Shown piece by piece: positions 18,304-31,035 of a stretch of 64,000 nt of DNA. Below the pieces are notes generated by a model, which was not told where the DNA came from, ran no database searches, and saw nothing but the letters and a program-made list of their open reading frames with translations. Origin of the DNA: Deltaproteobacteria bacterium (lineage in GTDB: Bacteria > Desulfobacterota > Syntrophia > Syntrophales > UBA5619). Numbering within the stretch: position 1 is the first letter of the stretch; every line of letters begins with the position of its first letter. A program made the position numbers and the translations under genes. The stretch lies in the NCBI GenBank assembly GCA_016935075.1, contig JAFGRP010000167.1:6170-70169 (forward strand), given 5' to 3'.

Positions 18304-19659
18304 TTACTTGACGGACATCAAGACATTGTTCAGGACGGATCCCATCTCTCGCCGGATCGAATCCAATCGTTCCTGTGTTGCCGCTTCGAATCGCAGAACG
18401 AGAACAGGCTGCGTATTGGATACCCTGAGAAGCCCCCAACCGTCACCGAAAGCCACCCGCACGCCGTCAATATCGATAATTTCATGGCTGTGACGGTAGT
18501 ATTCCCGGACGGCCTCCACCACCCCGAATTTGATCCGGTCGGGGCAATCGATACGGATCTCGGGTGTGGCAAAGGTTCGGGGGAGATCGGAGAGGAGGTC
18601 GCTCAGCCTTTTTCCGGATTCGGATAGAATCTCCAGCAGACGGACGGAGGCATATATCGCGTCGTCAAATCCGAAATAACGGTCCGCGAAAAAGATGTGA
18701 CCGCTCATCTCTCCGGCCAGGAGGGCCTTTTCCTCTTTCATCTTCCCCTTGATCAGAGAATGCCCGGCCTTCCACATGATGGCCTGCCCGCCATTCCTGA
18801 AAATGTCGTCATAGAGTTTCTGCGAACATTTGACCTCCCCGATGATGACTGCGCCGGGATTTTTCTTCAGGATGAAGCGAGAGAAGAGCAGCAGCAGTTC
18901 ATCCCCCCAGAGAATATCGCCGCGATCCGTGACTACGCCGATCCGGTCGGCATCCCCGTCATAGGCGATACCGGCTTCGGCCTTTTCTGATAGAACCAGT
19001 CGGGTCAATTCCTGCAGGTTTTCAGGAACGGTGGGATCGGGAAAGTGGTTGGGAAAGCGGCCGTCCGGATCGCAGTAGATGTCGGTGACACGGCAGCCGT
19101 ACCGCTTCAGCAGAGGGAGGGCGAAGAATCCGCCGACGCCGTTGCCGCCGTCGATAACGATTCGGTGACCCGGCATCACCTTCACATGCTCGAAGAGATA
19201 ATCACGATATATTTCGGAGATTTCCCGGCGGGAGGATCTTCCCGTGCCGTCAATATAGACCCCGCATTCGATGATCTTCCGCAGCGCCTGAATATCCGTT
19301 CCGTAGATCGTATCCGGGCCGATGCAAATCTTGAAGCCATTGAAATCCGGTGGGTTATGGCTCCCCGTGACCATGACGCCGCCATCCGTATGGAAATGGC
19401 GGATCGAAAAGTATAGCATGGGTGTGGCGCAGAGACCGATATCGGTAACATCGATGCCGGCGGAGCGGATTCCCCTGCCGACGAGATCCTGATAAAGACC
19501 GGAACTGAGCCGACAATCCCGACCCAGGGACATTGTCCTTACTCCGTGACGGACGGCATAAGTGCCGATTGCCCTTCCCAGAAGGTAGACAAAATCCTGG
19601 GTCAGATCCTTGTCCACAACACCTCTGATGTCATACTCGCGAAAAACATCAGGATTCAT
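18304..19659 (-). CDS. phosphomannomutase/phosphoglucomutase (alpha-D-phosphohexomutase)
   Basis: FREYDIRG N-terminus, phosphoserine loop TGSHNPPDFNGFK, metal loop GIAYDGDADR. The GAGG RBS overlaps the stop of the upstream gene. Confidence 0.9.
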   Translation of the reverse strand: MNPDVFREYDIRGVVDKDLTQDFVYLLGRAIGTYAVRHGVRTMSLGRDCRLSSGLYQDLVGRGIRSAGIDVTDIGLCATPMLYFSIRHFHTDGGVMVTGSHNPPDFNGFKICIGPDTIYGTDIQALRKIIECGVYIDGTGRSSRREISEIYRDYLFEHVKVMPGHRIVIDGGNGVGGFFALPLLKRYGCRVTDIYCDPDGRFPNHFPDPTVPENLQELTRLVLSEKAEAGIAYDGDADRIGVVTDRGDILWGDELLLLFSRFILKKNPGAVIIGEVKCSQKLYDDIFRNGGQAIMWKAGHSLIKGKMKEEKALLAGEMSGHIFFADRYFGFDDAIYASVRLLEILSESGKRLSDLLSDLPRTFATPEIRIDCPDRIKFGVVEAVREYYRHSHEIIDIDGVRVAFGDGWGLLRVSNTQPVLVLRFEAATQERLDSIRREMGSVLNNVLMSVK

Positions 19660-19666
19660 GTTTACC

Positions 19667-20707
19667 TCACGGCTGCATCAGGGCCTGAAGATTGACATGG
19701 GTGCGGACCATCTGTTCGATCAGGGCGATCTTTTCAAGGTCATCCTTTGTCGGAAGGGATTCCATTCCTTCAATCTGTTTTGCAATCTCATATGTATCCG
19801 CCGATACGAGCAGGAGGGGGATCCCGCATTTGGCGGCCTTGGAGATGAGATTGGACGGAGGGAGTATGTTGTTGGTCAGGATGATCGCAGAGGTGTTGGT
19901 TCCCAGGGCGGCTACGATCATATCAAACTGGTCGCCGCTCGTGATGATCAGATTGCTTTCCTGCTGGAAAAGGGTGTTTTTCAGTGCGGCACCGGCGGAC
20001 ATCGATCCGATGAAGATGTTTTTGACGATCCGTCTCAGGTTTTCTTCCCCGGTGATGATTTTCGCGAACAGGCGATCCGCCAGATAACCGACGGAGAAGT
20101 AGGGGAGTTCCTTGTAATAGGGGATCACGCCCAGGACTTCAACGCCGTGCCGTTGGATTTCCGACAGGCGTGTATCGCAGAAATCGGCAACGTTGGCTAC
20201 TTTGTTGATGATCACTCCCTTGAAGCGGACATCTCCCGTCTGAATGTATTTTTTAAGAAAAATCACGTCATCGAGAATGGTCTCCTCGTCGCCTCCCGCG
20301 ACCACGATCAGTTTAGCGTCGATATCTCTGGCAATGGTCAGGGCATCCAGGTGTACCGAAACGCCGTAGGTGATGTCCTTTCCACACTCCGCAAAAAAGA
20401 TCTCTTTGCCCTCACCGGAGCTGATCACGAGTTCCCGAAGCTTTTCGCGTGTGGTGTCTTCATCCAGCATGGAGAGAAGCTTGGAATGATAAAAACCGAT
20501 GCTCATGTTTTCCGGATTTTCCTCCAGGCCGAATATGTGGGTGATTAACGCGGCGTCGTAGTCCCAGAGTCTTTTCTTGCGATACAGGAATCGTTCTCCG
20601 AAAGGTTTGATATAGCCGATCTTGCGGTTTAATGCCTTCGTGGCGCCGATGATGAAACTCGTTTTGCCCGCACCCTGGCGCAAGGATGTAACCACAAACT
20701 TATCCAT
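19667..20707 (-). CDS. stand-alone phosphotransacetylase-N-terminal-like protein (BioD/CobQ-type P-loop + DRTGG-like domain)
   Basis: P-loop RQGAGKTS near the N-terminus. DRTGG-like segment IITSGDQFDMIVAAL...ILTNN...GIPLLLV. No PTA_PTB catalytic domain. ATG 20707 has GAGAGG upstream. The long ORF start is 20725. Confidence 0.7.
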   Translation of the reverse strand: MDKFVVTSLRQGAGKTSFIIGATKALNRKIGYIKPFGERFLYRKKRLWDYDAALITHIFGLEENPENMSIGFYHSKLLSMLDEDTTREKLRELVISSGEGKEIFFAECGKDITYGVSVHLDALTIARDIDAKLIVVAGGDEETILDDVIFLKKYIQTGDVRFKGVIINKVANVADFCDTRLSEIQRHGVEVLGVIPYYKELPYFSVGYLADRLFAKIITGEENLRRIVKNIFIGSMSAGAALKNTLFQQESNLIITSGDQFDMIVAALGTNTSAIILTNNILPPSNLISKAAKCGIPLLLVSADTYEIAKQIEGMESLPTKDDLEKIALIEQMVRTHVNLQALMQP

Positions 20708-20742
20708 CGATCCAACCTCTCTCATTCCAGATACATGTCTGT

Positions 20743-22653
20743 TTATCCCCGAAAGGCCATTTTCAAATCGTAGACCCCCGCGTCGCTTTTTTTCTTGATG
20801 TCGAAGCCGCCTTTTTCGAATACGTGCAGCATGGGTTTGTTGTCGACCAGGACCTCAGCCGTAAAGCCCAGAAGACCTTCCTTTCTGGCAAGATAGGTCA
20901 GGTAGGAGAGCATTTCCTGCCCGATGCCTCGATTTTGCTGATCATCGCGAACGGCAAATGCGACCTCCGCCGTATGGGATTTTTCATCAATTCCGTACTG
21001 TCCCACACCGACGATCAGTTCATTTTCCGCTGAACCGACGATCCCCAGGATGACCACCTCGCGGCTGTAATCAATAATTACGAAGTCCTGGAGACGCTCG
21101 TGCGGCATGTCCTTTCTTATGGAAAGAAAACGGCGATTCATGCTTCGGTCCGACAGAGAATAGAAGAAATCCTTCAGAAGCGGCTCATCGCTGATCTTAA
21201 CGGGACGCAGGAAAAGATGGAGGCCGGTTTTGGTGGTGCGGTGCGTCTCGAGGTCCTCGGGATACTCCCCCCGCTTTCCGGGGATGAAGGCCTGATCCCG
21301 GTAAATGATCCCCCGTTTCTTCGCCTCTTCAATAAGCCAGGGCCTGAATTTCGGATGGGCAATGGAGATGAGCGTCATTGCCCTCTCTCGCACATTTTTT
21401 CCGTGGAGATAGGCGATGCCGTATTCGGTGACCACATATCGGACATCCCCCCGGTTCAGCGTGATGCCTGCAGATTCGCGCAGAAAGGGAACGATACGGG
21501 AGACGGTGTCTTTCATGGCCGTGGATTTTATCGCGAGGATGGTCCTGCCGCCTTCGGCCAGGAGGGCGCCCCGCATGAAATCTTGATGACCCCCGACGCC
21601 GCTGTAAAATGTGCTGCCGATTGAATCCGATGTGGCCTGGCCCGTAAGATCGATTTCCAGGGCGCTGTTGATGGCGACCATGTTTCTCAGACGGGCGATG
21701 TTGAGGGGGTTGTTCGTATAATCGATGGTCCGGAAGAGAATGGAGGGGTTGTCATTGAGAAATTCGTATGTTGACTTCTTCCCCATGCAGAAGGCGGCTA
21801 TAGACATTCCGGGATTAAGGCTTTTCTGGGAATTGTCGATGACCCCGGCGTTGATCAAATCCACCAGACCATCGCTGAAGAGTTCGGTGTGCACCCCGAG
21901 ATGTTTCTTGTTGTAGAGGTTGGCGAGAACCGCGTTCGGAAGACCGCCATAACCCACCTGGATCGTGTCGCCATCCTGAACAAGCCTCGCCACGTTGTTG
22001 CCGATACGCTGGGTCGTCTCGGTTTGTTCGGTTCCCGGAAGTTCAAGGATGGGCTCATCATGACGGACGATGAAATCGACATCCCGGATGTGGATGAATC
22101 CGTCTCCATGCACGCGGGGCATTTCGGCGTTGACCTGGGCAATGATCACGGAGGCTTGATCCGTGGCGGCCTTGACCATATCTACACTGATCCCAAGGCT
22201 CAGATAACCGTGTTTATCTGGGAGACAGGTCTGCACCAACGCCACATCGATCTTGACGGAGCCGCTTTTGATCAGGGCGGGCACGTCCGAAAGGGAAACG
22301 GGGGCATAGTCGGCAAGCCCCTCATTGACCGGGCCGCGGGTGTTGTTTCCGACGAAAAAGGAGGTGAGTCGAAAATTGCGTTTAAATTTAGGGTCGGTAT
22401 AGGGGGCAATTCCGAAAGAATAGATATGGATGATTTCGGTATCGAAAAAGGCCTTGGGATGGGATTCCACATAATTCACCAGGGCCTGGACAAGATATTG
22501 AGGCTCCCCGCAACCGGAGACGACAAAGATGTGATCCCCCCGACGGATGTGGCTGAAAATATTTTCCTCCGCGGCGAATTTTTCAGGGTAAAGTTTTTTC
22601 CAGCCATCCAGAGAATGCATGTCGTTTTCAAAACCCATCAGGAGCAACCTCAC
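20743..22653 (-). CDS. acetyl-CoA hydrolase/CoA-transferase family domain fused to a C-terminal Pat-type GNAT acyltransferase domain (paralog 1)
   Basis: The N-terminal ~450 aa resemble 4-hydroxybutyrate/acetate CoA-transferases (VHTELFSDGLVDL, SGVGGHQDF). The C-terminal ~170 aa carry a GNAT with the Pat/PatZ-like pattern (RPVKISDEPLL..RRF..IIDYSRE..QNRGIGQEML). Start could be GTG 22653 or ATG 22638. Confidence 0.8.
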   Translation of the reverse strand: MRLLLMGFENDMHSLDGWKKLYPEKFAAEENIFSHIRRGDHIFVVSGCGEPQYLVQALVNYVESHPKAFFDTEIIHIYSFGIAPYTDPKFKRNFRLTSFFVGNNTRGPVNEGLADYAPVSLSDVPALIKSGSVKIDVALVQTCLPDKHGYLSLGISVDMVKAATDQASVIIAQVNAEMPRVHGDGFIHIRDVDFIVRHDEPILELPGTEQTETTQRIGNNVARLVQDGDTIQVGYGGLPNAVLANLYNKKHLGVHTELFSDGLVDLINAGVIDNSQKSLNPGMSIAAFCMGKKSTYEFLNDNPSILFRTIDYTNNPLNIARLRNMVAINSALEIDLTGQATSDSIGSTFYSGVGGHQDFMRGALLAEGGRTILAIKSTAMKDTVSRIVPFLRESAGITLNRGDVRYVVTEYGIAYLHGKNVRERAMTLISIAHPKFRPWLIEEAKKRGIIYRDQAFIPGKRGEYPEDLETHRTTKTGLHLFLRPVKISDEPLLKDFFYSLSDRSMNRRFLSIRKDMPHERLQDFVIIDYSREVVILGIVGSAENELIVGVGQYGIDEKSHTAEVAFAVRDDQQNRGIGQEMLSYLTYLARKEGLLGFTAEVLVDNKPMLHVFEKGGFDIKKKSDAGVYDLKMAFRG

Positions 22654-22853
22654 CGTGAGATTAGGAGCAAGATGAAAATCATTGCTTGCGGACGGGTAAT
22701 CCTAATCATTATGACCGTTTTCTGTCAAGAAAAGAAAAAAACCACGGCGATAAATTCCCCTGAGCAAACCGGACCCATTTTCGTATTAATCCCCGCATAA
22801 AGGATCGATCCTGATGAGGTTCGGAGCTCCAATGTCTTGAGCAGGGTGCGTTA

Positions 22854-25010
22854 TTATTTGGAAGACGGCGGTTTGAGGATGATCCGGCAATCCGCAACGG
22901 TTGCCCCCTTCCCCTCCTCATGGACCAGAAGGGGATTGATATCCAGTTCAATGATCTCCGGATGGTTGATAACCATGTCGGACAGCCGGACGATGTTTTT
23001 CTCCAGGATCTCGACATCCGATTTGGGGCGTCCGCGGAAACCGGTGAACATCTTGTAGCTTTTGATCTCGTGGACCATCCGGTGCGCCTCGTCGCGGTCG
23101 ACTGGAGCCAGACGGAATACCACATCCTTGAACAGCTCAACGAAGATGCCGCCCATGCCGAACATGATCAGTGGGCCGGCAGCGTAACGGTTCATCCCGA
23201 GGATGACCTCATCCCCCGCCTCCGCCATCTTCTGAATGAGAACCCCCTCGAGATGGGCCTCGCCATCGAACTTTCCGGCATTCGACATGATCCGCGTGAA
23301 ATCCGCTTTTATCTCCGCCTCCGTTTTGACCCCGACGACGACGCCGCCCGCGTCCGATTTGTGGAGAATCTGAGGGGAGACGATCTTCATAACGACCGGA
23401 AAACCGATCTCTACGGCGATTTGCACTGCTTCCGCCGCGTTCTTCGCCAGTTTCGTGGGCAGCGTGTTGAAACCATAGCGTTTGAGGAGTTCCAGGCCGT
23501 CCAACTCACCCAGACGGGTCTTTCCGGCGGCCAGACAGCCCCGGATGATCTTCTCGGCCCCCGCGCGATCATGGGCCTTCAGTTTGAACGGCGGCAGGTG
23601 CTCGCGGTTGAGCCAGTGGGAATATTTATAGAGCGCCCCAAGGGCCTTGGCCGCGTTTTCCGGAAACTTGTAAACCGGATATCCGTGCTCCTGGAGGTAT
23701 TTCACCCCGGCTGAGACATCTACGATCCCCATGAAGCAGCAGAGGATCGGTTTGGAAGAGCGGCGGGCAACGCGCACGATCGCCTCTGCCGTCCCCAGCG
23801 CATTCGTCATGGACTGAGGTGTGAGTATAACCAGGGCGCCATCCACGCCCTCGTCCTTGATCACGGCGGAGAGGGCCGTTTCGTAACGGTCTGATGGGGC
23901 GTCTCCAATAATATCCACCGGGTTGTTGATGTTGGCCGTCGTGGGAAGGCAGCGGGCCAATTCGGTGATCGTTTCCGGCGCGAAACTCGCAAGTTCAAGG
24001 TCGGAGGAAACGGTCATGTCGGTTGCCAAAATTCCCGGACCGCCGGCGTTGGTCACGATCGCCACCCTTCTGCCGCTGGGAATCTTCCTTTTCGCCTTCC
24101 CGAGGGCACTTTCGCGCTTGTAGGCAAAGGCATTGGCGAAATCGAAAAGCTCTGCGATGGAATTGGCCCGGATGATCCCGGCCTGCTTGAAGATGGCGTC
24201 GTAGACCGCCTCCGTCCCGGCCAGCGCACCCGTATGGGAGGCGGCCGCCTGGGCGCCGGCCTTGGTCCGGCCCGACTTGATGATCAGCACCGGGGTGGGC
24301 CGGTGGCCGGAGGTGATATTCTTGACCGCTTCAATAAACTCCTGTCCCTTGCGAAGCTCCTCAAGGTAGAGAATGATGACCGCTGTGTTGAGGTCGTTGT
24401 GCAGGTAGAGCAGAAGATCCAGCTCATCGACGTCCGCCTTATTGCCGATGGAAATGAATTTTGAAAAACCGAAATTACGGTCAGCGGCAAAATCGAGGAC
24501 GGCGGTGCAGAGCGCCCCGCTCTGGGAGATGAACGATATATTCCCGCAGATGGGCATCCGCTTGGAGAAACTTGCGTTCAAGCTGACGTCGGGAACGGGG
24601 TTGATGACGCCAAGACAGTTGGGACCGACGAGGCGGACCCCGGCTTCTTTGCAAAGCGAGACGATTCGGTTTTCGATCTCCAGACCCTCGCCGCCGACCT
24701 CGCGGAAACCGGCGGAGACGATCACGATCCCTTTGACCCCCTTTTCGATGGACTCCTCTACTGCCTTGAGGCAGACCATGGGCGGCAGGATGATGATGGA
24801 GAGATCGATCGTGTCAAAGATTGCATTGATAGCCGGATACGTCTTCACGCTCAGAATGGACTTGGCCTTGGGATTAACCGGATAAAGAGTTCCCTGGAAA
24901 CCGCCCTGAAGGATGTTGGCAAAGATATCATGCCCTACCTTGCCGGGGGTATTGGAGGCGCCGATAATGGCGACGGATTCCGGGGAAAAAATGGCATCAA
25001 GACCTTTCAT
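22854..25010 (-). CDS. ADP-forming acetyl-CoA synthetase (acetate--CoA ligase, fused alpha/beta, NDP-forming)
   Basis: CoA-binding IIGASNTPGKVG, phosphohistidine loop ASHTGALAG, C-terminal ATP-grasp. ATG 25010 (MKGLDAIF) lies downstream of a strong promoter. The TTG at 25100 is part of that promoter's -35. Confidence 0.88.
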   Translation of the reverse strand: MKGLDAIFSPESVAIIGASNTPGKVGHDIFANILQGGFQGTLYPVNPKAKSILSVKTYPAINAIFDTIDLSIIILPPMVCLKAVEESIEKGVKGIVIVSAGFREVGGEGLEIENRIVSLCKEAGVRLVGPNCLGVINPVPDVSLNASFSKRMPICGNISFISQSGALCTAVLDFAADRNFGFSKFISIGNKADVDELDLLLYLHNDLNTAVIILYLEELRKGQEFIEAVKNITSGHRPTPVLIIKSGRTKAGAQAAASHTGALAGTEAVYDAIFKQAGIIRANSIAELFDFANAFAYKRESALGKAKRKIPSGRRVAIVTNAGGPGILATDMTVSSDLELASFAPETITELARCLPTTANINNPVDIIGDAPSDRYETALSAVIKDEGVDGALVILTPQSMTNALGTAEAIVRVARRSSKPILCCFMGIVDVSAGVKYLQEHGYPVYKFPENAAKALGALYKYSHWLNREHLPPFKLKAHDRAGAEKIIRGCLAAGKTRLGELDGLELLKRYGFNTLPTKLAKNAAEAVQIAVEIGFPVVMKIVSPQILHKSDAGGVVVGVKTEAEIKADFTRIMSNAGKFDGEAHLEGVLIQKMAEAGDEVILGMNRYAAGPLIMFGMGGIFVELFKDVVFRLAPVDRDEAHRMVHEIKSYKMFTGFRGRPKSDVEILEKNIVRLSDMVINHPEIIELDINPLLVHEEGKGATVADCRIILKPPSSK

Positions 25011-25071
25011 GGTTTTCCTTTCTTCTCTGTTAGTGTGCCCCTTCCGGACGGGGTACTGTTGTTCCTTTAAA

Positions 25072-25100
25072 ATTATCGGCCAGTGTTTCCCGCCTGTCAA
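25072..25100 (-). promoter_or_regulatory. sigma70-like promoter for the ACD operon
   Basis: On the minus strand: TTGACA (25100-25095), 17-nt spacer, GATAAT (25077-25072). About 55 nt upstream of ATG 25010. Confidence 0.5.
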
Positions 25101-25274: not shown

Positions 25275-26138
25275 TCAGGACGGGGGGCGCCCGGTCAGGT
25301 AATCGAAAGGTAATTTTTTGAAGATAACGGGACCTTTTCTCCAGTCGGGAAGGCGGTAATCTGTAACGATCCCGAGAAAACCGACGATGATATGGAAAGT
25401 TGCCCCCCAGAGGATCTCTTCCCCGCCATCGGAATCCCGATGAATCAGGCAGGGGTATTGAAGCAATCTGCGTCCTCCAGCAGCGGGCGCATCGATCTGA
25501 TAGCACCCGAAAAAATCCTCCCGGTAAAAAGACGAAAGGGGGATGACCACGATCTTTTCCACCTCACGGTTCGGACAGAGCGTTCCGGGATTCTCCACAA
25601 ATCCGGCCAGAGGAAAAATCGTCCGTCGGAAAAGAGTCAGGTTGTGCGTAGGCAGAGGGCCGAGGAAGCGGACGCGGTAAGGGGGAAGCCGGATCTCCTC
25701 CCAAGCTTCGCGAAGGGCGTTGGTTAGAAAAAGGGCGATGAATCGAAAGGAGGACGCTTGTTGCTGAAGCGCGTATGCACGCGCCTTTCCTCTGAGAATG
25801 GAGAAAGGTCCGTGGATCAGAAGCGGTCTCAGAAGTCGGTCCAGAACCGGGTGCAGCATGCCCCCCGGAAGGCTCAGATCGCCGGACTGGGGGACGAGGG
25901 AGGAGCGCTTGATCAACTGAAACACGAATTGCCCCTTCCCTTCAAAAGGGGATTCCTGAAAGAGAAGGGGAAGGAGTACCCCGGCTGCACGACGGTGGTG
26001 ATCCGTCTTCCCTGAAGGGGTAAGCTTCCGGAAGGTTTCTTGAAAATCGCAGACAGGCGTTCCGAGTTTTTCTATCACCCTGTCAAGAAACGCCTTGCAG
26101 TCCGTGAAAAGTCCGGGATCCGGAACAGGTTCAGTCAT
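25275..26138 (-). CDS. Nudix hydrolase, CoA pyrophosphatase-like
   Basis: Nudix box ...ALREAWEEIRL. The upstream LIKRSSLVPQSGDLSLPGG resembles the CoA-pyrophosphatase (NudL/Nudt7) LTxRSx(n)GxxxxPGG motif. ATGA overlap with the upstream hydrolase gene. Confidence 0.65.
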   Translation of the reverse strand: MTEPVPDPGLFTDCKAFLDRVIEKLGTPVCDFQETFRKLTPSGKTDHHRRAAGVLLPLLFQESPFEGKGQFVFQLIKRSSLVPQSGDLSLPGGMLHPVLDRLLRPLLIHGPFSILRGKARAYALQQQASSFRFIALFLTNALREAWEEIRLPPYRVRFLGPLPTHNLTLFRRTIFPLAGFVENPGTLCPNREVEKIVVIPLSSFYREDFFGCYQIDAPAAGGRRLLQYPCLIHRDSDGGEEILWGATFHIIVGFLGIVTDYRLPDWRKGPVIFKKLPFDYLTGRPPS

Positions 26139-27124
26139 ATTTCCTCTTCCTGTTCGAGGATTTCATCGATTCGCTTCTCATACCAGCAGCTCATGGGAAA
26201 AGGATCCAGGAATCCGCAATGTCCGCCGTACCGCTGAATGGAAATATCGAGATATCGGTTTTGCGGCAGATGCCGGAAATCCTCCACGGGAACAACGGGA
26301 TCATCCGCAGAGGTCATGATTGTGACCGGCATGGCGAGAGAGGCAAGTGCGTTTCCCGTAAGCGTGTAAAGATTAAAATAATCAATATAATTATCGAATT
26401 CATTATACCAGGGCATGATGGCCTCGGTCAAATTCATGCAGGTCTTGTGATGGAGGATCCCTTCAAAACGGTAGAGTTCCGGGAAACAGCGTTGTTTCCG
26501 CCGGAGAGACCTCTTCCACTTGGCCAGAAAATAGATGCGGTAGATGGGAAGACTTTTGTCGATGGCCAGCGTCGATCGATAGGGATCGAGAGCAGGGCTG
26601 ATGGAGAAAACCCGCCTGAGGTTGGTAATTTTGGAGAGGGATTGCCGAAGAGCAATCCTGAGCACAAAATTCCCGCCCAGTGAAAACCCGATGAGATAGC
26701 AGGGTCGATCCGGCAAAAGCCGTGCAATGTTGCCGACCGCTTGAGCCGTCTCATCCGTCAAAGCGCCGTGAAAGAGTCCCTGATTCAGATGATGGCTTTT
26801 CCCGTGGTCTCTCAGGTTGAGGCGGAAGATGTCGTATCCCCGCCGGAAAAAATAACGTCCCGTTGAGATGACATAGGTGGAATCGGAACTTCCTTCCCAC
26901 CCGTGAATCAGGATGATCAGCCCCCGAGGCCGAACAGGTTGCCGGGAATGATAACCCAAAAGACGACAGCCATTGCCGGCGTTGATGATCACTTCCCGTG
27001 CAACGGCGGCCATCTCGTTTTTTCCCGTTGCCCTGAGCCCCAGACTCCCGAAGATCGTCTGTATATGGGGGCTTCTGGCCCAGACGGCGGGAAGAAAAGG
27101 CTTAATGACCATGTGCGTTCCCAT
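26135..27124 (-). CDS. alpha/beta hydrolase (YheT/ABHD1-3-like)
   Basis: HGWEGSSDSTY and GFSLGGN (GxSxG nucleophile elbow). About 330 aa, typical for this family. Confidence 0.75.
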   Translation of the reverse strand: MGTHMVIKPFLPAVWARSPHIQTIFGSLGLRATGKNEMAAVAREVIINAGNGCRLLGYHSRQPVRPRGLIILIHGWEGSSDSTYVISTGRYFFRRGYDIFRLNLRDHGKSHHLNQGLFHGALTDETAQAVGNIARLLPDRPCYLIGFSLGGNFVLRIALRQSLSKITNLRRVFSISPALDPYRSTLAIDKSLPIYRIYFLAKWKRSLRRKQRCFPELYRFEGILHHKTCMNLTEAIMPWYNEFDNYIDYFNLYTLTGNALASLAMPVTIMTSADDPVVPVEDFRHLPQNRYLDISIQRYGGHCGFLDPFPMSCWYEKRIDEILEQEEEI

Positions 27125-29145: not shown

Positions 29146-31035
29146 TCAACTCGGATTTGAGATAAAAGGAATGGTCAGGTTGTAGATTCCGAATTCCATG
29201 ACCGCACGGATCGGGAATGGCGCCTTTTCGAAGACCTTGAGCATGGCCTTGTTGTCGGCGAGAACGTCCGCCGTGAATCCTTCGATTCCCTGTTCGCGTG
29301 CCACACGGATGAGGGTTTCGAAAAGGAAAGAAGCGACGCCTCGTCCCTGAAAGTTTTCATCCACCACAAAGGCCACATCCGCGAAGGGGCGGTCGCTGTA
29401 ACGGACATAACGCCCTTCCGCAATGAGCTTCTCCGTTCCCGATTCCACAACCGTTCCCACGATCGACATGATGCGCTGGTAATCGACGTTCACATACTCC
29501 TGCATTTTGCGGTGGGGCATCGACTTGATTGCGCTGAAATAGCGATAATAGACGGCATTGTCGGAAAAACGGTAGAAGAGTTTCCGCATCTCTTCTTCGT
29601 CGGAGGGTTTGATCGCTCGGAAACGGACGGTCAGTCCCCCCTGAAAAGCGTGGGTACACGCCAGACGGCCGGGGTAAAGGGAACCGGAGCCCGGCAGATA
29701 GAGCTGATCCGCATACAGGATGTTGGCATCTTTGGCCTGAAGAATCAGTGCCTCGCGGTCATTGGGATGGGCGATGTCAATCAGCGCCTGGGCGCGCTCC
29801 CGGACGGTCCGCCCGATCATCGAAGCGATGCCGTATTCCGTTATGATGAGATCAAGTGATTCGCGGTTGGTGAACTGATTCGGAAAATCCTCCACCGACA
29901 GGAGAATATTGGACCGGCCCATTAGATTGCGGCTGGGAAGGGCGAAGATCGTCCGGCCTCCGCGGGAACATTCCGCCCCGGCAAAAAATTCCTGCGCCTG
30001 CCCCGGACTCGGTGTGACGTTTCCCTTGCCGATGTGCAGGGCGATGCCGCCGGTCAGATCGACTTTACGTGCGGGGAGGATGGCGATCATTTTATCGTTG
30101 AGGCTGATCCGCTGATGATCGGAGACCACATCAATTCCCTGAAACTCGACCAAGGGGTTGCGGTGGAGCCATTGTAAAAGCTCGGGAGTGCCCTGGGCGT
30201 AGGCGGTCAGGGATTTGTCGCGGAAGTGGTTCTTTTTCCGATTTGTAATGGCGCCACACTTGATCAGATCCATAAGGGGATCGGTAAAGAAGTAGGTGTG
30301 CACACCCAGGTTGTGCTTGCGGGCAAGGTGGCGTCCCAGCGCCTCGAACAAGGCGCCGGAATAGAAAGAGATGCAACTGCCGTCGTCCACTACGGAAGCG
30401 ACGTTCGCGGCAACCTTGTCGATCACATCATCGACCGGCCAGCGGGGAAAGTAGATCGGCGGCTCCGTCGCCCGGACAAGATAATGAAAATCATCCAGAT
30501 GAACGAAGGTATTGCCCATCGTTCGCGGGATGCGGCTGTTGATTTCGCCGACGACGATGGTGGCGCGCTCCATGGCATACTTGGCAACATCGACCGAAAC
30601 GCCCAGACTCGCATAGCCGGCCTTGTCCGGGGGGGTGATCTGGACGAAGGCGACATCGACGCGGATCGCCCCCGACTCCACAAGGCGCGGGATCCGGGAA
30701 AAGCGGCAGGGGATCATGTCTACGAAACCGGAGGTAATCGCATCGCTGGCGAGCCAGCCGGCGAAAAAGGTTTTCAGCCGGTATTTGTGATCAACAGCGG
30801 CGTTTCGGAAGGCGATGGCATCGCCGAGGCTTACGAGCTGAACGAGTTCCAGATCGGTCAGGTTGGTCATTTCCGAGGTCGTGAGACTTTTTACGAGGGT
30901 CCGGGGTTCGGCCACGCCGGTTCCGAGGAAGATGCTCATCCCCGGTTCGATCCGCGAGAGAAAGACCTCGGGGGAAACGACTTTCTGTTCCCATTGGGAA
31001 TCCACATCGTCGAACATACCGTCACCTTCCTTCAT
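29146..31035 (-). CDS. acetyl-CoA hydrolase/CoA-transferase family domain fused to Pat-type GNAT domain (paralog 2, divergent)
   Basis: Same architecture and length as 20743-22653 (629 vs 636 aa). The GNAT part is well conserved (FRAIKPSDEEEM..YRYF..NVDYQR..QGRGVASFLF). In the transferase part HTYFFTDP replaces HTELFSDG and SPGQAQEF replaces GVGGHQDF. Confidence 0.75.
   Translation of the reverse strand: MKEGDGMFDDVDSQWEQKVVSPEVFLSRIEPGMSIFLGTGVAEPRTLVKSLTTSEMTNLTDLELVQLVSLGDAIAFRNAAVDHKYRLKTFFAGWLASDAITSGFVDMIPCRFSRIPRLVESGAIRVDVAFVQITPPDKAGYASLGVSVDVAKYAMERATIVVGEINSRIPRTMGNTFVHLDDFHYLVRATEPPIYFPRWPVDDVIDKVAANVASVVDDGSCISFYSGALFEALGRHLARKHNLGVHTYFFTDPLMDLIKCGAITNRKKNHFRDKSLTAYAQGTPELLQWLHRNPLVEFQGIDVVSDHQRISLNDKMIAILPARKVDLTGGIALHIGKGNVTPSPGQAQEFFAGAECSRGGRTIFALPSRNLMGRSNILLSVEDFPNQFTNRESLDLIITEYGIASMIGRTVRERAQALIDIAHPNDREALILQAKDANILYADQLYLPGSGSLYPGRLACTHAFQGGLTVRFRAIKPSDEEEMRKLFYRFSDNAVYYRYFSAIKSMPHRKMQEYVNVDYQRIMSIVGTVVESGTEKLIAEGRYVRYSDRPFADVAFVVDENFQGRGVASFLFETLIRVAREQGIEGFTADVLADNKAMLKVFEKAPFPIRAVMEFGIYNLTIPFISNPS

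Follow-up and report, generated by a model that had tools for sequence, protein, structure and literature searches.

Within a 64,000-nucleotide stretch of a metagenome-assembled genome (MAG) from the order Syntrophales (GCA_016935075.1, contig JAFGRP010000167.1, positions 6,170 to 70,169; referred to as the window), a minus-strand gene at 20743..22638, here called paralog A, encodes a CoA-transferase fused on one chain to a C-terminal GNAT domain of the kind found in Pat-type protein acetyltransferases. We consider it probable (about 0.6) that paralog A is a Pat-like lysine acetyl- or acyltransferase in which a CoA-transferase, still catalytic in this copy, replaces the dead regulatory or scaffold domain of Pat, which resembles an ADP-forming acyl-CoA synthetase (ACD). 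The C-terminal GNAT domain would be the constant catalytic writer, taking acyl groups from acyl-CoA and attaching them to lysines of enzymes that operate at the acetyl-CoA/acetate node. AMP-forming acyl-CoA synthetases are the likeliest targets, with the ADP-forming synthetase next to the fusion as a possible further one, and the fusion would most likely serve to switch acetate- and acyl-CoA-handling enzymes on and off. The N-terminal CoA-transferase domain would stand in for the dead ACD-like domain of type I and type II Pat by binding acyl-CoA or CoA, perhaps also the free acid, by providing an oligomer scaffold and by tuning the activity of the GNAT domain to the cell's acyl-CoA state. CoA-transferases related to this domain are dimers. 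A near-invariant GNAT domain, repeated loss of the catalytic glutamate from the transferase, and gene neighbourhoods with ACD, acetyl-CoA synthetase of the AMP-forming kind (Acs) or HDAC-type deacetylases, most clearly the operon of a relative designated P0169, count in favour of this reading. That protein lysines accept the acyl group, which enzymes are targeted and that the two domains are coupled allosterically is what we infer.

The regulation of PatZ by acetyl-CoA binding provides a precedent for this logic, and the GNAT domain of PatZ is inactive when isolated. The ACD-like domain of Pat is not catalytic, yet it binds acetyl-CoA and activates the GNAT domain (PMC8556138, PMC12184503), and acetyl-CoA bound to this domain of PatZ both activates the GNAT domain and helps to form the pocket for Acs (PMC12184503).

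Architecture of the fusion protein

The first-pass annotation had placed the gene at 20743-22653. The minus-strand open reading frame at these positions is indeed uninterrupted and comprises 636 amino acids when counted from GTG, but GTG 22653 falls within the likely ribosome-binding site, a Shine-Dalgarno-like GGTGAGG that lies 8 nt upstream of ATG 22638 (GGTGAGG-N8-ATG). Because of this motif and because homologues of paralog A have a length of 631 amino acids, ATG 22638 was taken as the likelier start, from which the protein is likewise 631 amino acids long. The gene and its parts are as follows, with the basis of each assignment in brackets.

20743..22638, minus strand: CoA-transferase/Pat-type GNAT fusion gene, paralog A (open reading frame, start context, homologue length, Pfam)
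21304..22596, minus strand: CoA-transferase domain, residues ~15-445 (PDB sequence matches, Foldseek, TIGR03948 at 271 bits)
21883..21885, minus strand: codon of the catalytic Glu252 in the HTE motif (alignment with the HTEM Glu of 4-hydroxybutyrate CoA-transferases)
21589..21600, minus strand: GVGG, the GxGG motif (alignment, orthologue conservation, DNA re-read)
21208..21303, minus strand: interdomain linker, including the "YP..." extension that Pat-type GNAT domains have at their N-terminus (model, orthologues, PatZ/SlPatA alignment)
20755..21207, minus strand: Pat-type GNAT domain, residues 478-628 (Pfam, PDB alignment, Foldseek, DNA re-read)
21184..21207, minus strand: RPVKISDE of the GNAT domain (re-read from the DNA)
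20965..20967, minus strand: codon of the general-base Glu558 in AEVAFA (aligned with PatZ E809)
20920..20937, minus strand: GNAT P-loop QNRGIG (re-read from the DNA)

A Pfam search of the fusion protein returned AcetylCoA_hydro (E 5.8e-44), AcetylCoA_hyd_C (E 2.8e-61) and several GNAT models in the final 150 residues (Acetyltransf_1, E 5.6e-10), so that the presence of CoA-transferase and GNAT domains on one chain, as read in the first-pass annotation, is confirmed. All motifs quoted there were found again when the DNA was re-read, in the form of HTELFSDG, GVGGHQDF, RPVKISDE, AEVAFA and QNRGIG. An NDP-forming synthetase-like regulatory domain was not recognized, as Pfam showed no CoA_binding, Succ_CoA_lig or ATP-grasp_5 domain in the fusion protein. 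In databases the family has only automated names, for example "acyl-CoA hydrolase/GNAT superfamily N-acetyltransferase". A model obtained with AlphaFold2 on 40 family members had a mean pLDDT of 90.5 and a pTM of 0.86, and with its ordered linker the protein is confidently predicted to form one body.

By its sequence, the N-terminal domain is assigned to the clade of 4-hydroxybutyrate/butyryl-CoA:acetate-type CoA-transferases (family I, PF02550 and PF13336). Paralog A contains the two Pfam domains and shows the two-lobed fold of this family, and 3eh7, 9vag and 3gk7 were matched in the PDB at E 1e-115 to 1e-105. Foldseek aligned the transferase part of the model to 3gk7, 2oas, 3eh7 and RipA with target TM scores of 0.92-0.95, or 0.93-0.95 for the first three of these, the rmsd to solved CoA-transferases being 1.4-2.2 Å. 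Both HTELFSDG and GVGGHQDF have aligned counterparts in 3eh7 and 9vag, the second of them corresponding to GxGGQxD[FY] of the solved enzymes. In structural alignments, AbfT (3gk7), 3eh7, 2oas, 9vag and RipA of Yersinia pestis (3qli) share the fold, the Glu of HTE and GxGG with the fusion at 36-42% identity, whereas these enzymes are stand-alone proteins of about 430-450 amino acids. In this family the Glu of the HTE motif forms the enzyme-CoA thioester; in RipA it is E249, the residue changed in the E249A and E249D entries. The impression of an intact transferase domain gained from the sequence in the first pass is supported, and Glu252 and GxGG were invariant in 120/120 close orthologues of paralog A. 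Given this full preservation of the site, the domain of paralog A probably still turns over. No acid substrate can be assigned to it, because the NCBIfam equivalog cut-offs were not reached (271 bits against a cut-off of 674.8 for TIGR03948, butyryl-CoA:acetate CoA-transferase).

The C-terminal domain is, judged by its relatives of solved structure, specifically of the Pat type, as the only strong matches among these are Pat enzymes. SlPatA matched at E 1.4e-15, PatZ at 6e-15 and MtPat/MsPat at 1e-10; Pat enzymes as a set thus matched at E 1e-15 to 1e-9, compared to about 2e-3 for the next GNATs. The marks of the Pat subtype are all present, namely the Glu, the P-loop Q/RxxGxG/A and the N-terminal extension YP...RPxxxxDE. 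Glu558 aligns with E809 of PatZ (9it0), named in PMC12184503 as a key and potentially catalytic residue, and the equivalent residue of SlPatA is E123. In Foldseek, the first match of the GNAT domain was the GNAT of SlPatA with the Acs C-terminal domain (4u5y; TM 0.93, rmsd 1.8 Å). Together these data uphold the Pat-type assignment that had been proposed from the sequence pattern. The linker that precedes the domain, and with it the Pat-type extension, aligns with PatZ from residue 709 onward and with SlPatA from residue 16 onward. It is ordered in the model (pLDDT 83-95), and with a mean identity of 0.89 among orthologues it is conserved as much as the domains themselves.

A constant GNAT domain joined to a changing transferase

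Of the 150 best matches from an exhaustive HMMER search against 50%-identity representatives, 72 were full-length fusion clusters and 47 were stand-alone transferases. The GNAT residues are nearly invariant over the fusion clusters, with R478 kept in 68/72, D484 in 71/72, Glu or Asp at position 558 in 68/72 and G571 in 68/72. The catalytic Glu of the transferase, by comparison, is kept in 40/72 fusion clusters and is replaced by Asp in 14 and by other residues in 18, leaving 32/72 clusters that have the GNAT motifs without this Glu. Both the Glu and the GG are retained in 27/72 fusions versus 39/47 stand-alone transferases. In a tree of the transferase domains, the state of the Glu changes at least 16 times among the fusions, and 43/47 stand-alone proteins group in one clade (SH-aLRT 95) from which the fusion domains are excluded.

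One such member with a degenerate transferase site is encoded in the window itself.

29146..31035, minus strand: paralog B, same architecture as paralog A (35-36% identity; GNAT motifs intact)

Paralog B lies 6.5 kb from paralog A. Its transferase domain has HTY in place of HTE (Glu to Tyr) and SPGQAQEF where GxGG has been lost. Across the order paralog B is kept, as a rule 6-9 kb away from paralog A and with an FG-GAP/TolB_N protein after it. Among orthologues in the same three genomes, the dead transferase domain of paralog B was conserved at 0.87, 0.84 and 0.76, compared to 0.88, 0.84 and 0.76 for the live domain of paralog A. A dead domain that is as conserved as the live one argues for a selected, non-catalytic role, and we infer that in paralog B and in many relatives the transferase has become a non-catalytic binding domain. 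A live and a dead paralog that are kept close to each other across an order represent a natural experiment in the conversion of an enzyme into a sensor domain, which parallels the history of ACD and Pat. Among the metagenomic relatives, P0181 and P0183 are triple fusions of CoA-transferase, GNAT and HDAC, and P0127 and P0132 have a 4Fe-4S domain added at the N-terminus. The transferase Glu is absent from all four.

Two mechanisms had been suggested in the first-pass annotation, either coupling of CoA transfer to acylation or use of the transferase fold as an acyl-CoA sensor, and the family-wide evidence favours the second, a sensor or regulatory domain. A coupled bifunctional enzyme would use acetyl-CoA and a free acid to make one specific acyl-CoA, such as butyryl-, crotonyl-, glutaryl- or 4-hydroxybutyryl-CoA, and pass it straight to the GNAT domain, which would place that acyl group on protein lysines. 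The invariant Glu and GxGG in the close orthologues of paralog A fit such a mechanism, as do the domains, which appear rigidly packed in the model with its ordered and conserved linker, and the many different acyl-lysine marks that syntrophic relatives bear (PMC8942843). The fusions without Glu, among them paralog B and the HDAC- and 4Fe-4S-fused members, nevertheless keep their GNAT domain, so coupling cannot be the general mechanism of the family, and dead members still occur beside ACD or an Acs-deacetylase pair. In addition, a GNAT can take acyl-CoA from the pool without channelling. For paralog A, with its strictly conserved site, coupling is possible, although we regard it as an improbable account of the protein.

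Alternatively, the fusion might merely ensure that a short-chain CoA-transferase with a housekeeping role is co-expressed with a Pat-like acetyltransferase, without any communication between the domains. Fusions of pathway-related enzymes are common, and in paralog A both active sites look complete. If the enzymes were only co-expressed, however, a transferase domain would be expected to be lost after its site had died, whereas the fusion persists with the domain fully conserved, and the linker is an ordered segment that matches the domains in conservation. We therefore consider two independent activities quite unlikely, and return to a Pat-like writer with a regulatory transferase domain as the preferred interpretation.

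That the fusion is real, and not two separate genes joined by an assembly or frameshift error, had to be considered for a fragmented MAG of 265 contigs with 7.9% contamination. Paralog A contains no stop or frameshift between the two domains, and more than 100 relatives in other genomes, single-contig genomes among them, are open over the full length without stops. Two adjacent genes with a stop between the domains, the pattern that the first-pass annotation had named as evidence of an artefact, were not seen in these relatives; the few split copies are broken inside the transferase domain and not at the domain boundary. A pattern scan of public genomes, with one genome per species, gave at least 590 confirmed fusion loci, whose taxon labels cover many bacterial phyla and several archaeal lineages. 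With this number of loci, the independent full-length genomes and the 72 separate 50%-identity clusters, an artefact can be dismissed with near certainty. As the scan was built on a 10-sequence alignment of Glu-intact members and its search patterns include HTE, all 65 full-length fusions from the scan loci keep the Glu and are unusable for a comparison of live and dead members.

The taxonomic distribution that the first-pass annotation had called for proved to be wide. In the order, 36/41 sampled genomes (own genome included) had a match at E ≤ 1e-20, and the full-length, stop-free matches form two orthologue groups, A with 60-88% identity and B with about 33-37%. In a sample of 201 genomes of the phylum (own genome included), requested at ≥ 90% completeness, 95/201 had a match at E ≤ 1e-100, and nearly all of these matches span both domains. 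Genomes of the phylum have up to five fusion copies each, and one has three in tandem. The three tandem copies (G182:C5:672890-678635) show 54-64% identity to paralog A, and the third contains one in-frame TAG. Judged from these sequences, the architecture is common in anaerobes.

Gene neighbourhoods and the acetate/acyl-CoA node

The neighbouring genes in the window are the following.

22854..25010, minus strand: ADP-forming acyl-CoA synthetase (ACD) with fused alpha and beta parts (Pfam, NCBIfam, His loop)
24234..24236, minus strand: codon of the ACD phosphohistidine in AASHTGAL (re-read from the DNA)
19667..20725, minus strand: stand-alone Pta-N-terminal-like protein, AAA_26 P-loop and DRTGG (Pfam; first ATG 17 nt past the fusion stop)
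25275..26138, minus strand: Nudix protein (co-directional upstream; syntenic with the fusion across the order)
26135..27124, minus strand: YheT-like alpha/beta hydrolase (co-directional upstream; syntenic with the fusion across the order)
18304..19659, minus strand: phosphoglucomutase/phosphomannomutase (PMM; conserved downstream neighbour in the order)
22699..22728, minus strand: sigma-70-like promoter match TTGACA-18-TAGGAT in the gap of ~215 nt between ACD and fusion (weak evidence)

The separate ACD upstream of the fusion is bona fide, as the first pass had stated: all five Pfam domains are present, including CoA_binding, Succ_CoA_lig, Ligase_CoA_2 and ATP-grasp_5, together with the phosphohistidine loop AASHTGAL. 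The NCBIfam equivalog cut-offs were not reached by this ACD, for which no acid substrate can be assigned. Its mechanically called frame (22854-25100) opens at TTG 25100, and ATG 25010, from which the conserved N-terminus MKGLDAIF... is read, is the likelier start. In its domains the protein at 19667..20725 is equivalent to the N-terminal part of class II phosphotransacetylases, and the Pfam search found no PTA_PTB domain in it. It has a complete Walker A motif (QGAGKTS), which by a simple pattern is shared by only 4/19 of the homologues that lie beside fusion or ACD genes in other genomes.

The conserved string in the order reads hydrolase - Nudix - [ACD] - fusion A - [Pta-N-like] - PMM, in which the genes for ACD and the Pta-N-like protein either both occur or are both missing. 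Counts of neighbours in the public-genome scan refer to 80 loci for presence and to 68 loci from other genomes for adjacency or location within three genes. ACD directly adjoins the fusion in 23/68 loci, and the Pta-N-like gene is located within three genes in 16/68, of which 15/16 also have ACD; the usual order in other genomes is fusion - ACD - Pta-N. The His loop is kept in 28/31 neighbouring ACDs. AMP-forming Acs was present in 8/80 loci (within three genes in 5/68) and HDAC-type deacetylases in 5/80 (3/68).

The most telling neighbourhoods belong to members with a dead transferase. P0169 heads a tight operon in which the fusion is followed by an AMP-forming Acs, an HDAC-type deacetylase and a second AMP-binding ligase, and P0206 begins 3 nt after an ACD with an intact His. 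Since members without the Glu are also found beside ACD or Acs, the link to these enzymes is independent of CoA-transfer chemistry and points to the GNAT domain as its source. Nothing could be learned from the genes surrounding the two HDAC triple fusions or several other dead-Glu members, the latter of which lie on short contigs or have housekeeping neighbours. In a further dead-Glu member, P0218 (L124:6001-8411), an isochorismatase-family gene starts at the fusion stop; its product might be a nicotinamidase, which would hint at a sirtuin link.

The same neighbourhoods bear on the question of whether the acceptor is a small molecule. As an N-acyltransferase, the fusion could form amides independently of ATP, from acid, acetyl-CoA and an amine to the N-acyl amine, or could acetylate metabolites; in that case the HDAC-family proteins associated with it would act as acetyl-amine amidohydrolases and not as protein deacetylases. 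Enzymes acting on small molecules occur in both the GNAT and the HDAC families, MFS transporters were found in 7/80 loci (within three genes in 4/68), and BadL sets a precedent of small-molecule acetylation that controls benzoate catabolism (PMC6191541). All strong matches of the GNAT domain are, however, Pat-type protein acetyltransferases, with the Pat-specific N-terminal extension included, and the best-defined operon, that of P0169, has the fusion directly before Acs, the classical target of Pat and AcuA. A small-molecule acceptor is thus quite unlikely in comparison with protein lysines.

Several observations weigh against paralog A being a regulated, Pat-like writer. The strict conservation of the transferase site in paralog A and its 120 close orthologues fits a working enzyme and not a mere sensor. 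No Acs gene is located near paralog A, its conserved neighbours in the order (hydrolase, Nudix and PMM) say little, and the association with ACD does not establish ACD as a target. Many of the taxon labels of MAGs in the public-genome scan may reflect mis-binned contigs, and searches of the literature retrieved no biochemical or expression data for any member of the fusion family.

The live site of paralog A could also be accommodated in an extended scheme, in which the transferase acts as a catalytic sensor whose Glu-CoA or acyl-enzyme state, reflecting the ratio of acyl-CoA to free acid, gates the GNAT domain. With the active ACD and the Pta-N-like P-loop/DRTGG protein it would form a three-protein switch for acetate and acyl-CoA, resembling an ancestral unfused state before type I and type II Pat arose by fusion of GNAT with an ACD that later lost catalysis. 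We offer this scheme as speculation that is rather unlikely to hold in full.

Elsewhere in the own genome (90.7% complete), the rest of a toolkit for reversible acetylation is encoded: two Acs (contigs C54 and C48), two HDAC genes, two SIR2 matches, of which one is cut short by a contig end, and a Pat-like protein of the ACD-GNAT type in a 920-aa open frame (contig C39, L003:1444-3462, minus strand). The latter has THTG where the ACD of the window has SHTG, and its His appears to be retained, unlike in type I and type II Pat as described, so that it might be an active ACD fused to GNAT. No PTA_PTB domain was found in this 90.7% complete genome. An acetate kinase match (contig C65:2063-3241, plus strand) was found within an open frame of 781 aa, roughly double the size of AckA. 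The principal enzyme of ATP formation in the related Syntrophus aciditrophicus is AMP-forming Acs1 (PMC4992975), and the proteome of this species is heavily acylated (PMC8942843). That paper treats sirtuins, and names no acyltransferase in the passages searched.

Relation to known acetyltransferases

Bacterial GNAT lysine acetyltransferases have been sorted into five types, none of which has a CoA-transferase domain, in a 2021 review (PMC8556138) and in a 2025 paper on the PatZ structure that includes a survey of the AlphaFold DB (PMC12184503). Our literature searches for the CoA-transferase/GNAT architecture found no paper specific to the fusion, in line with the first-pass annotation, which knew of no biochemical characterization. 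Classified by regulatory domain, the fusion family would constitute a sixth type. Far from being rare, it occurs in about half of the genomes sampled from the phylum, often in several copies, and extends to many other anaerobic lineages. The energy yield of the host organisms depends on enzymes that convert acetyl-CoA to acetate (Acs or ACD), and their proteomes are heavily acylated; a writer tied to acyl-CoA would therefore bear on the control of thin energy margins in syntrophs and other anaerobes.

Type I Pat of Salmonella enterica and E. coli (Pat/PatZ, YfiQ; 9it0, 9isq) has the same C-terminal Pat-type GNAT with the Glu, the P-loop and the YP/RPxxxDE extension, preceded as in the fusion by a large domain derived from a CoA-ester enzyme, which is dead in many fusion members as it is in Pat. 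In the fusion, however, this large domain is a family I CoA-transferase and not an NDP-forming acyl-CoA synthetase, and in paralog A it keeps its catalytic residues, while the adjacent gene encodes a separate ACD that is apparently active. In Streptomyces lividans the type II enzyme PatA (4nxy, 4u5y), the source of the best GNAT match in sequence and fold, has the GNAT at the N-terminus followed by the ACD-like domain, whereas the GNAT of the fusion is C-terminal to the CoA-transferase. With the AcsA-AcuA-AcuC system of Bacillus subtilis, in which a type IV GNAT and an HDAC-type deacetylase act on Acs (classification in PMC8556138), the fusion relatives that have an Acs and Hist_deacetyl operon or an HDAC fusion share the layout of writer, target and eraser. 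AcuA differs as a bare GNAT of another subtype, and paralog A has no Acs or HDAC gene beside it.

A counterpart of the Pta-N-like protein is DVU3031 from the luo operon of Desulfovibrio vulgaris, a stand-alone protein with the same AAA and DRTGG domains without PTA_PTB. These domains also constitute the N-terminal regulatory half of class II Pta. Both proteins accompany acetate-forming enzymes, but the partners of DVU3031 are pta-ack and those of the protein in the window are ACD and the CoA-transferase/GNAT fusion.

Among the remaining neighbours, PMM is probably not functionally linked to the fusion. The Nudix protein matched the CoA pyrophosphatase model NF007980 weakly (E 7.5e-8), far under the cut-off. 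In a scan of the region for promoters and terminators, the number of matches was not above the expectation from shuffled sequence, and the sigma-70-like match between ACD and the fusion is to be read with this background.

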